Counted from the stretch's first letter, positions 14,995 through 18,317 are shown. The stretch: DNA of 64,000 nt from Octopus vulgaris (GCA_951406725.2 OX597817.1:149234001-149298000); one strand, 5' to 3'. Numbers and translations: made by a program. The notes: generated by a model not told the origin, from the letters alone.

Positions 14995-15399
14995 AACAAC
15001 TTATAAATAAAGGCAAACGAAAAAATTTTCTAATGCTAAATATGCCGAAAAATTGGACATATTCTCCATTTACCATATTATATTTTTTCCTAGTACGCAC
15101 GCTACTCTAAAAAATTCCATTATTACCATATCGGACCGATTTCAGGGTTAGTTCAAAAAGAACCCTTCCTTCGTCAGTGATACATGTGGCAAAGAAGTAA
15201 ATGAGATACTTACTCATACCCATGGAAGAAGCAAACACTAAGTCATGAGCACAACTAAGTACCCCAAATAAATCCAAAATAGAAATACTCCAGCCCATTC
15301 AAGGCACGTGCGATTTGAACTGAGGCACTCACAGAGTGGGAGAGTCCGGAAGTGAACACTATTAAATTTATATCTAATGTAGGATAACATTTTTTCGAA
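14995..15399 (-). mobile_element. HHR element family A, left inverted arm
   Basis: Near-identical reverse complement of 15650-15725 plus 16559-16896; hammerhead core at 15128-15183. Confidence 0.8.
15128..15183 (-). ncRNA. Minimal type I hammerhead ribozyme motif
   Basis: gtatca CTGACGA aggaagggttctttttgaactaaccct GAAA tcgg TC cgatat. Confidence 0.65.
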
Positions 15400-15409
15400 T
15401 TTGTTGAAT

Positions 15410-15611
15410 ATGTTGAATATTTGATTTACAACATTTCAATGTCGAACACTTTACTTCTATTTGAACACGAGGCTATTTTTTCCAGCAGTGTTTATTTACT
15501 AGAGTCGAACAACGGAAGCTACATGCCTCGAACGGAAACTGATATGTTAGAAGCATTGCCATTATAATACCAGAGGAGAAATCAGAATCGATGATGGTGG
15601 TGGTGGTTAAT
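15410..15611 (-). repeat. Inverted duplicate of local sequence 12160-12367
   Basis: Reverse-complement match over ~200 bp with few substitutions and a shortened (CCA)n. Confidence 0.92.
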
Positions 15612-15725
15612 TTATATCTAATTTATATCTAATGTAGAATAATTTTTTTTCGAAAAAAAATTTTATCCTACATTAGATATAAATTTAATAGTGTTCATTT
15701 CCGGACTCTCCCACTCTGTGAGTGC

Positions 15726-16553
15726 AGGGTTTGTAGAGGCCGGTTGCGATAATACGTTAGGGGAGACCCTAGGTTTCGACGATAATCAGCTGGCCAGACT
15801 GTTCCAACGTACATTTGGGCCGAGGACCCTGGATAATTTTCAGAAGTCCTTGGCATGGCAGTGTTACCGAGGAGCCTTACCTGTTCGGGATAAACTCTCA
15901 AGGCACGGAGGCCAAGACAGCCCGACCTGTCCGAGGTGTGGGCGAGACAGGGAAACCGTCTCGCACGCGATCTTGCAGTGTTCGGAGGTGTCGGACATGT
16001 GGGTTTTTGCCGAACAACTGTTGTCAAGTGGAGGAGGAGTACAGCTATCGACTGAATCCATTGTAAAAATCGCCCCGCCGGATTTCTTAACGAAAGAAGG
16101 TAAGAATTGTTTTCTCTCTGGTTTCAACTGCGAAACAGGTAGTATGGAAGACAAGGATGAAAGGGGTAACAACAGGCAACTTCATCTCTGGTCCTAGTGG
16201 TATATTTTAGATTACACCTAAAAAGACAAATAGAGCTAGAGAGGAGGTGCCTGAGTAAGAAAGTGTTTGATGAAAGATGGAAGAATGTCGTGAAAAAAAG
16301 GACCCTCATGAATGCGAGATAAGCCTAAAAGAAAAAAGGAAAAAAAAACAAGGTCAGTGTCGTGGCGGGGCTCGTGAGGTCCGTAATCCCACTCCACTCC
16401 ATCTGTGAAATTGTCCTGTACAGTGTCTTATCATCCGTAAACTGTAACCATGTATAAATTTTTAACAGACCCCATACGCATGTTTAATGTTAAATCACTC
16501 GTGATTGTACCGTTTTTTTCTATGTATAACCTTTATGGTGAATAAAGAAAAAA
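15726..16553 (+). mobile_element. L1/Tx1-clade LINE 3' fragment inserted in the right arm of the foldback
   Basis: zf-RVT-like WQCYRGALPVRDKL..CPRCGRDRETVSHAILQC; ends AATAAA + A-run; host arm resumes at cacgtg 16559. Confidence 0.85.
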
Positions 16554-16685
16554 TCTCCCACGTGTCTTGAATGGGCTGGAGTATTTCTATTTTGGATTTA
16601 TTTGGGGTACTTAGTTGTGCTCATGACTTAATGTTTGCTTCTTCCATGGGTATGAGTAAGTATCTCATTTACTTCTTTGCCACAT

Positions 16686-16741
16686 GTATCACTGACGAAG
16701 GGAGGGTTCTTTTTGAACTAACCCTGAAATCGGTCCGATAT
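16686..16741 (+). ncRNA. Minimal type I hammerhead ribozyme motif
   Basis: gtatca CTGACGA agggagggttc ttttt gaactaaccct GAAA tcgg TC cgatat; stem II aggg/ccct plus ggttc/gaact. Confidence 0.7.
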
Positions 16742-17032
16742 GGTAATAATGGAATTTTTTAGAGAGTTCTGTCGACCTTTTTTCGAGTAGCGTGCGTACT
16801 GGGAAAAACATTATATGGTAAATGGAGAATATGTCCAATTTTTCGGCATATTTAGCATTAGAAAATTTTTTCGTTTGCCCTTATTTATAAGTTGTTTATG
16901 ATTTAACCTTTAAAGGTATTATTTAATATGATGGTCATTGATAAAAAATTTTTTCGAAAAAATTTTATCCTACATTATATATATATATATATATATATAT
17001 ATATATATATATATATATATATATATATATAT

Positions 17033-17372
17033 CGTTTTGGGATTTGGTTTGCAAGATTCTTTATATGAGTTCGTGTGTTGAAGCATATTCTGTTGTGTCT
17101 GGGGACAGTCATTTTCTTTTTGTGCCCTATAATTTAACACACTCACCGGTAAAATCTCCACTTATTCCTTATTTTTATTTTCCTAAAATTTCGTTGCGTC
17201 TTGCAACCTTTTCAATAGTCTTGACTCTGAACAGACAGAGTCAAGACTATTGAAAAGTTTGCAAGACGCAACGAAAATTTTAGGAAAATAAAAATAAGGA
17301 ATAAGTGGAAATTTTACCGGTGTGTTAAATTATAAGACACAAAAAGGAAATTACTCTCCCCACACACAACAG
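17033..17372. mobile_element. Foldback element family B in (TA)n with HHR-like variant core
   Basis: Arms 17090-17229 and 17236-17372, 6-nt loop; TTGAAAAg-gttgc aagac gcaac-GAAA; related element at 21600-21752. Confidence 0.72.
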
Positions 17373-17400
17373 TATATATATATATATATATATATATATA

Positions 17401-17635
17401 TGTAGGTCCCGGGTTGATTCGGGGTTAACCACAGTAAGTAAGGTACTCAATACATAGCAGAGTAAAATTAATTTATTATATAGAAGGAGCTTCTACAGGA
17501 CTAGTACTGTTTCATTCAAGAGAAATCTTCAGGAAGCTCTTCCTGAAGATTCTCTTGAATGAAACAGTACTTCCTGAAGATTTCTCTTGAATGAAACAGT
17601 ACTAGTCCTGTAGAAGCTCCTTCTATATAATAAAT
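17401..17635. mobile_element. Double-hammerhead foldback family C, copy 1, in (TA)n
   Basis: HHR on minus (17488-17538) and plus (17570-17616), plus a partial core duplication; same left end as 54040 copy. Confidence 0.85.
17488..17538 (-). ncRNA. Type I hammerhead ribozyme
   Basis: agcttc CTGAAGA tttctcttgaat GAAA cag tactagtc ctg TA gaagct: 6-bp stem I, acag/ctgt stem III, GUA triplet. Confidence 0.75.
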
Positions 17636-17680
17636 ATATATATATATATATATATATATATATATATATATATATATATA

Positions 17681-18317
17681 TTAAGAATTATATACATAAC
17701 TATAACAAGGGATTTGCTATACATTCTCCACGCGCTGGAAAAATAGACGCCAAAAGACATGATTACCACCTTAAAATCTCCGAGAATAACACACTGGGTT
17801 GTAGGCGAGCAAAAGAAAGATAATGACTTCAACTTTTGGTAAACCGTGTACAAGATCCTGTTTCAAACTTAAAGTAAGAAAAAAATTCTTATTGCTCTCA
17901 TCAGCAACGATATTCCATAGTATAAATTTACGAGTATCCACACATACGCATACGTGCAGCGTCATCGAACAGTCAATATATGTACGCTCTCGTAGAAATA
18001 TACAGTAAAGTAGAATTCAAATCTCTCTTTTACAACCACGTGTAATGACTCACGACATACTCTCCAGTTAATGTAGTTTTGGAATATTGTTGCTGATGGG
18101 AGCAGTAAGTAATTTTTTTCCCTTTAAGCTTGAAACAGGGTCTTGTACACAGTTAACCAAAAGTTCAATTCATTATCTTTCTTTTGCTCACCTACAACCC
18201 AGTGTGCTATTCTCGGACACTTTAAGGTGGTAACAGCGTCTTTTGGCGTCTAATTTACCAGCGCGTGGAGAGGCTTATAACCAATCCCTCGTTATAACTA
18301 CGTATATAATTATTAAA
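17681..18317. mobile_element. Older inverted pair, HHR element family D
   Basis: Arms 17681-17917 and 18081-18317 visibly diverged; minus core cgttg CTGATGA gagc..gttt GAAA caggatcttg TA cacgg (17844-17909); plus copy has CTGATGG (18088-18152). Confidence 0.72.

Follow-up and report, generated by a model that had tools for sequence, protein, structure and literature searches.

A window of 64,000 nt from the Octopus vulgaris genome (GCA_951406725.2 OX597817.1:149234001-149298000) was analyzed, in which four inverted-repeat elements with hammerhead ribozyme (HHR) cores, here called A to D, lie between positions 14995 and 18400. In the original prediction, made from the sequence alone, they had been regarded as a guild of tiny non-autonomous ribozyme retroelements that insert as hairpins into TA microsatellites. 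Our analysis relates them to Penelope-like elements (PLEs). The features of the region are as follows (LINE, long interspersed nuclear element); all positions are those of the window.

14995–15399, minus strand: left arm of A, part of a 483-nt non-coding monomer; "short" 3′ end at 14995, HHR core start at 15177, predicted cut after 15129
15400–15619, no strand assigned: insert at the centre of A; 15407–15607 is a 97% inverted copy of window 12170–12370
15620–15725, plus strand: short inverted junction piece of A and start of its right arm (monomer positions 394–472)
15726–16555, plus strand: LINE 3′ fragment inside the right arm of A (zf-RVT, PF13966, E 8.6e-10), AATAAA near the fragment end; ~11 nt of monomer lost at the site
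16556–16977, plus strand: right arm of A; HHR core at 16692, predicted cut after 16740, then a tail of ~80–90 nt to the "long" end
16976–17032: spacer (TA)28 between A and B
17033–17228, minus strand: left arm of B with 57-nt tail (17033–17089); PLE 3′ end (CX4CxxC linker, GIY-YIG), U3-A8 core at 17215–17209
17229–17372, plus strand: right arm of B (short end), U3-A8 minimal HHR core at 17250
17373–17400: spacer (TA)14 between B and C
17401–17539, minus strand: left (long) arm of C; HHR core at 17532, tail 17401–17470, first base of stem I 17538, extra G 17539
17540–17635, plus strand: 32-nt junction duplication of C, then its right (short) arm with HHR core at 17574
17636–17680: spacer (TA)n; the TA array spans 17624–17681
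17681–18085, minus strand: left (short-end) arm of D, a 485–514-nt non-coding monomer; HHR core at 17904, stem I bulged
18080–18400, plus strand: right arm of D; damaged core at 18093, ~85-nt tail 18317–18400

The four elements are mutually unrelated in sequence (best pairwise blastn E 0.15) and only (TA)14–29 tracts lie between neighbours, as had been proposed. Likewise confirmed was the outward orientation of the cores, which lie on the minus strand in the left and on the plus strand in the right arms. In every element the arms are unequal and one side bears a tail of 57–90 nt. For D the start at 17681 holds, but the end lies near 18400 and not at 18317, the tail having been missed. The statement that none of the elements codes for protein fails in the case of A, given its 830-nt LINE fragment and the zf-RVT match therein. 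The copy inserted at the centre of A was absent from all other fetched loci. Within the window, substitutions between the two arms amount to 0/63 in C, 8/318 in A, 8/132 in B and 27/233 in D, and this differing divergence points to four insertion events of different age. A to D are four separate insertions and not one guild of non-autonomous hairpin elements.

Hammerhead cores had been claimed for all four. A strict type I descriptor detected seven cores in the 64 kb, four of them within the region, whereas 40 dinucleotide shuffles yielded no core at all; with a relaxed version the count was nine cores, six within the region, compared to 0.125 per shuffle. Both descriptors were composed after the elements had been seen. 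A, C and the left arm of D pass the strict descriptor and the right arm of B the relaxed one. The claim has two exceptions, as the left core of B is missed by the relaxed descriptor and the right core of D is damaged (CTGATGG). No hammerhead occurred among the best 150 of 259 Rfam matches, only microRNA-like and snoRNA chance matches. The right core of A exhibits a stem I of 5 bp, a stem II of 4 bp with an outer hairpin and a stem III with near-palindromic loop; in the C core a U-U pair is found at the base of stem II. In the right core of B an extra base precedes a 5-bp stem II and a palindromic AATT replaces stem III. Its TTGAAAA variant, first noted as merely hammerhead-like, is the published U3-A8 form and more than a look-alike, yet stem I comprises just 3 bp. 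With regard to compensatory covariation of the stems, the differences between family copies appear to be mostly private decay. A fifth, unrelated type I hammerhead lies on the minus strand at 2500–2560 (core at 2549, stem I of 8 bp with a bulge, stem II of 5 bp); it is adjacent to (TA)16 and immediately upstream of a frequent repeat.

Judged by its genomic copies, family C is the pseudo-long terminal repeat (pLTR) of a young, putative Hydra-clade PLE. At locus L325 an open reading frame (ORF) of 722 aa is flanked by C at both sides and contains DKT, RWR and CxCX5C motifs as well as a C-terminal GIY-YIG with CxxC and CxH motifs. Over the 138 nt between the first base of stem I and the long end, the long C arm of the window matches the pLTR of L332 without a single difference, and the reverse transcriptase (RT) copies of the parent are 99–100% identical to one another. 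The parent unit measures ~5.2 kb, including a microsatellite-rich 3′ untranslated region (UTR) of 3 kb. The clade was assigned by motifs (RWR for RWK) and the (TA)n target, not by an RT tree. Pfam called neither RT nor GIY-YIG in the 722-aa ORF; among 120 listed homologues, two have PF01541 and one PF00078. C cores occur as opposite-strand pairs ≤9.6 kb apart, and TA follows 98 of 101 C ends.

Three other assignments of C were rejected. Its description as an obligate tiny non-autonomous element came from query-biased sets and was overturned by an unbiased pattern search that reached PLE ORFs. A Naiad parent (N-terminal endonuclease, no canonical HHR) does not agree with the C-terminal endonuclease, and the PLE ORF inside L303 is part of another element that has a 3′ end of its own. 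This further PLE (L303 4352–7048, minus strand) has a hammerhead-like motif with CCGAAGA core in its 3′ UTR and occupies the middle of a long inversion of family C. A second C foldback, of an older subfamily, was found in the window at 54040–54237, with CTGATGA core and perfect AGCT centre in (TA)n. Two more young PLE families were encountered. One (L333–L342, e.g. L333 1669–3849) is of Hydra type and has an intact 727-aa ORF in dozens of copies, 43% identity to the C parent, its own hammerhead and TA ends. The other (L295–L300) has two ORFs (ORF of 781 aa), a CX4CxxC linker, many intact copies, repeated TGATTGG and TGACGTC in the 3′ UTR and a CTGATAA core variant near the end.

Family B represents the 3′ terminus of another protein-coding PLE family. 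Unbiased B matches extend upstream into a microsatellite-rich UTR and then an ORF with CX4CxxC linker and GIY-YIG, with RT motifs further upstream. Pfam gives PF01541 above the cut-off and RVT_1 weakly, and an open frame of 665 aa was read; in 25 of 30 loci B lies 3′ of the GIY-YIG domain and in the same orientation. The linker, seen in L182 and L215, is a Neptune/Nematis-type trait (CX2-5CxxC upstream of a C-terminal GIY-YIG); between these two we tentatively favour Nematis. Looking for copies attached to PLE ORFs had been suggested as a check, and such copies were found for both B (GIY-YIG ORF) and C (722-aa ORF). Among 30 B foldbacks picked by similarity, 22 have a non-TA duplication, mostly of 8–14 bp, and 4 are TA-flanked, including the copy in the window. 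B prefers AT-rich sites and is not a (TA)n specialist. A small inverted piece akin to the B tail (78% over 73 nt) lies in the window at 21606–21720, and near-identical truncated B pieces with an inverted B arm occur on six contigs (L216–L221), perhaps carried within another repeat.

A and D look like non-coding tandem monomers of retrozyme type, and only these two of the four look non-autonomous; the notion of tiny non-autonomous elements may hold for them and falls for B and C, the ends of coding PLEs. A wraps as a 483-nt unit with variable 5′ starts and stops at unit position ~344 or ~434, its longest arm being 762 nt or ~1.6 units (37 loci, picked by similarity or rare allele); D wraps at 485–514 nt. 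Both show the trait of non-LTR retrozymes, a non-coding head-to-tail monomer with a type I HHR, which is not the case for B and C with their contiguous coding parent. TA adjoins 39 of 44 ends in A; for D the proportion is 33 of 55, the misses including tandem run-on. Comparison of five PLE proteins with 68 A and D loci gave matches at three. The ORFs adjoining A (L008) and D (L095) were rejected as parents, a (TA)n tract separating ORF from element, and the third match (L094) is >1 kb from the element. After the D copy in L092 follows a stretch (~1480–1500) that we take to resemble a 5′ fragment of U6 snRNA.

First-look candidates in the genome, of which 40 were scored per family, numbered 779 for C, 4116 for B and, as lower bounds, at least 3104 for A and at least 513 for D. 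Exact matches amounted to 3911 for the C core and 409 for the B pattern; those for A and D were only 7 and 11, from patterns that contained rare alleles.

The 5′ ends of family C were investigated in 101 arms, from loci covering the first 100 listed core matches within the first 50 Mb of one contig. Twenty-eight arms end at +1, the first A of stem I, 24 at +2 to +6 and none at −1 or −2; 43 extend ≥40 nt upstream, and of the six intermediate ones three are long arms with indels. A TATAAA box is located 29 nt before the first A of stem I, a distance that corresponds to polymerase II spacing. Position −1 carries a G in 43 of 50 C arms from foldbacks in which both arms extend to +1 and a spacer is present (counted over all fetched sets, some query-biased), whereas the parent has T. 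The long C arm of the window has such an extra G (17539); in L1, the cap is known to be copied as an additional G. Past the extra G, the bases show no common upstream exon.

One long end is combined with one short end in 98 of 102 C foldbacks, and the arms agree at a subfamily single-nucleotide polymorphism in 101 of 102, although this polymorphism splits the family 54:47. Among 89 foldbacks, the arm without tail extends further 5′ in 30, the tailed arm in 30, and both are equal in 29; 38 junction types occur among them. Deletions of 1–3 nt just past the predicted cut were considered as RT-jump scars and rejected as a likely hairpin sequencing or assembly artefact: they occur in 16/196 foldback arms, in 0/54 long and 0/22 other arms, and are absent from short-read contigs at 1%. 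The 5′ wall with its usual extra G, the pairing of long with short arms and their common haplotype are the features of family C that are newer than published PLE traits; no published report of a cap-derived G or a start-site wall in PLE foldbacks was found in a search of mostly freely accessible literature.

Taken together, we give a probability of roughly 80% to four insertions by PLE reverse transcriptase-endonucleases, with B and C as ends of coding PLEs, A and D as retrozyme-type monomers, and twin priming on sense RNA. The enzyme would cut both strands at AT-rich DNA, and each cut end would prime its own complementary DNA (cDNA) on sense RNA that had not been cleaved; the two internal start sites used, a "long" and a "short" one, would lie 57–90 nt apart. 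Joining of the two cDNA ends head to head via microhomology would result in unequal inverted arms with a one-sided tail. The centre would be formed anew at each insertion and no preformed hairpin inserted; A and D would probably borrow the PLE enzyme. In C the start sites would be situated ~68 and ~138 nt from the predicted capped RNA 5′ end at the first base of HHR stem I, so that both cDNAs could run off the cap and give the minimal foldback. We infer for the C arms two primed cDNAs, joined by microhomology, on one capped sense RNA or on RNAs of one source locus. At slightly better than even odds, family C represents a "strong-stop" step, in which a dimeric enzyme at cut (TA)n would extend two cDNAs on one capped, uncleaved sense RNA starting at the first hammerhead base; their run-off and head-to-head joining would have produced about a thousand minimal hairpins. 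In the second Hydra-type family mentioned above (L333–L342), a TATA-like run ~25–30 nt before stem I makes the start-site idea testable there as well.

Several points weigh against this interpretation. None of the PLE pLTRs examined resembles A or D (a genome-wide search for coding parents was not made), and in family B no 5′ wall of the C kind was found. Within C, the arm set requires an intact 27-mer and ends inside the core are therefore uncounted. Many of the G's at −1 may be templated by the partner arm or by snap-back, most junctions continuing CCTG, and only a handful are unambiguous. The AGCT palindrome at +1 could itself draw junctions, the putative start site and cap are read from genomic copies, and the HHR of the C monomer is predicted to fold no more stably than shuffled sequences (z 0.0), cleavage being a prediction only.

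The wall at +1 might also be a truncation hotspot, caused by RT stalling or cDNA annealing at the AGCT of stem I, or a processed 5′ end, which we regard as possible but rather doubtful. Twelve of the 28 arms at +1 are perfectly palindromic through AGCT, the parental TAG/CTTCC with a branch-point-like CTAAT resembles a splice acceptor, and according to PMC4209133 an intron of Drosophila virilis Penelope ends at the 5′ end of helix I. Annealing, however, would permit arms at −1 or −2, where none were observed; a shared upstream exon is missing past the extra G, and the TATA spacing suits a start site. Contig depth downstream of +1 over the tail further shows a several-fold rise in two RNA-like runs and none in two DNA-like runs, a weak observation from contigs only. 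Self-priming, in which a single cDNA or an antisense RNA template (PMC3846280) folds back without a second primed end, is less probable still. It agrees with the single haplotype per foldback, the commonest C junction can be drawn as a snap-back with 3-nt loop, and palindromic junctions are the published argument in its favour. But the tail-less arms that reach further 5′ (30/89) contain bases missing from the tailed arm and are not producible by fold-back copying of the long cDNA. Some centres (L389, L078 and L083) have a loop of 0–1 nt with the extra G on both arms, and an antisense template would not lead one to expect a wall 29 nt downstream of TATA, at a start site of the sense strand.

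That all four are tiny non-autonomous ribozyme elements moving as preformed hairpins into TA microsatellites, as was originally supposed, is very improbable. About half of the C arms are minimal, an own ORF is lacking in A and D, and C, A and D favour TA, all of which would fit. The continuation of B and C into PLE ORFs largely refutes it for these two; B is TA-flanked in too few copies, both cores would be paired away in a full hairpin transcript, and the variation of the centres, made anew in each copy, contradicts insertion as preformed hairpins. Ordinary DNA-transposon miniature inverted-repeat transposable elements (MITEs) with terminal inverted repeats have a negligible probability. They would share with A to D the short inverted form within TA, but not the unequal ends, the variable centres, the variable length of the B duplications, the tandem wrapping of A and D or the RT-endonuclease encoded by the parents of B and C. 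In this respect the earlier assignment to PLE-related, HHR-bearing retro-insertions rather than MITEs was upheld.

TA-microsatellite targeting, as first suggested, applies to C, A and D in the proportions given above and not to B (4/30). The stack may have formed because three of the four families prefer (TA)n and each insertion leaves TA on either side. A second of the four families occurs ≤1.5 kb away in 10 of 216 loci, some fetched twice, and never two at once; the stack is uncommon, yet it fits a by-product of shared targeting. Left of it, a broken LINE reverse transcriptase (13353–14673, plus strand; RVT_1, E 1e-16) ends just before the TA tract. The long ends of A (16970–16977) and C (17401–17408) both end with CCTACAT before the TA run, although the families are otherwise unrelated; possibly this is a common start signal.

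At the RNA level, transcription had been expected to give a long double-stranded RNA containing a ribozyme core. Double-stranded RNA is plausible. The C read-through transcript is, however, predicted to fold into a 63-bp duplex that takes up both cores, and the HHR would therefore be held inactive. Three A-to-G changes were detected on the C sense strand, one of them at the cleavage-site base, with 6–12% of the depth in X1 and two also in X5; in two larger runs they stay <0.06% (contigs; the RNA nature of the runs is guessed). UAG is the favoured context of A-to-I editing, and two of the three sites lie in UAG. The changes hint at such editing, although individuals vary, and an expressed variant of low frequency may also account for them.

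In the published record, the supplements of PMC8557442 (family lists, HHR file) may list families A to D. The overall architecture is already known from PLEs: head-to-head, 5′-truncated PLE copies with one-sided tail and (TA)n bias were described in PMC8557442, and opposite-strand HHR pairs 100–700 bp apart, ascribed to truncated PLEs, in PMC4209133. In vitro work on another PLE (PMC11167929) demonstrated that RT starts at two internal sites, which bound the tail, that both strands are cut and extended and that the template RNA is uncleaved; later retrotransposition steps were left unvalidated. Antisense self-priming was proposed for PLE inverted repeats in PMC3846280, whose authors left the question open; the C data favour two primed cDNAs on capped sense RNA instead. 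With the inverted insertions of PMC8557442, PMC3846280 and PMC11167929, A to D share the 5′-truncated head-to-head copy, the tail at one end, palindromic junctions and two fixed 3′ ends, whereas their tails of 57–90 nt exceed the published 30–40.

Similar to the Hydra clade of PLEs with C-terminal endonuclease (EN+; Craig et al. 2021, PMC8557442), the C parent inserts at (TA)n, carries a canonical HHR and combines DKT, an RWK-like RWR and CxCX5C with a GIY-YIG at the C-terminus that includes CxxC and CxH. Published members are generally <3 kb in contrast to ~5.2 kb for the C unit, about half of whose arms are minimal, putative run-off copies. In B, the opposite-strand pair, the U3-A8 core, the extra base between 9 and 10.1 and the palindromic 15.2–16.2 recur from metazoan PLE minimal HHRs (Cervera and de la Pena 2014, PMC4209133), with a stem I of 3 bp compared to the published 4–5; A, C and D differ in having a real stem III. 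A and D resemble metazoan non-LTR retrozymes (PMC7229834; bioRxiv 10.64898/2026.07.22.740005): they are non-coding, tandemly arranged monomers, each unit contains one type I HHR, and the genome has active PLEs. Their units are longer than the 350–390 nt of mussel retrozymes, and their copies, known here from genomic sequence, are mostly <2 units and have PLE-type inverted arms and tails. The bioRxiv study argues that retrozymes are non-autonomous PLE derivatives and calls a retrozyme "active" if it has two consecutive complete HHR units.

A to D add two PLE ends and two retrozyme-type monomers carrying the known PLE insertion footprint, and the interest lies in C. For annotators they are a warning that such hairpins, though PLE ends, pass as MITEs or retrozymes. 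Family C bears on the open question of how PLE head-to-head repeats and tails originate and is a test case for the formation of the inverted repeats: with thousands of near-identical copies, intact young ORFs and a sharp 5′ boundary, the question becomes testable by copy counts and in vitro. If true, the strong-stop interpretation favours sense-template twin priming as the origin of PLE inverted repeats. The hammerhead would then be the very 5′ end of the transcript, and its cleavage would decap the RNA.

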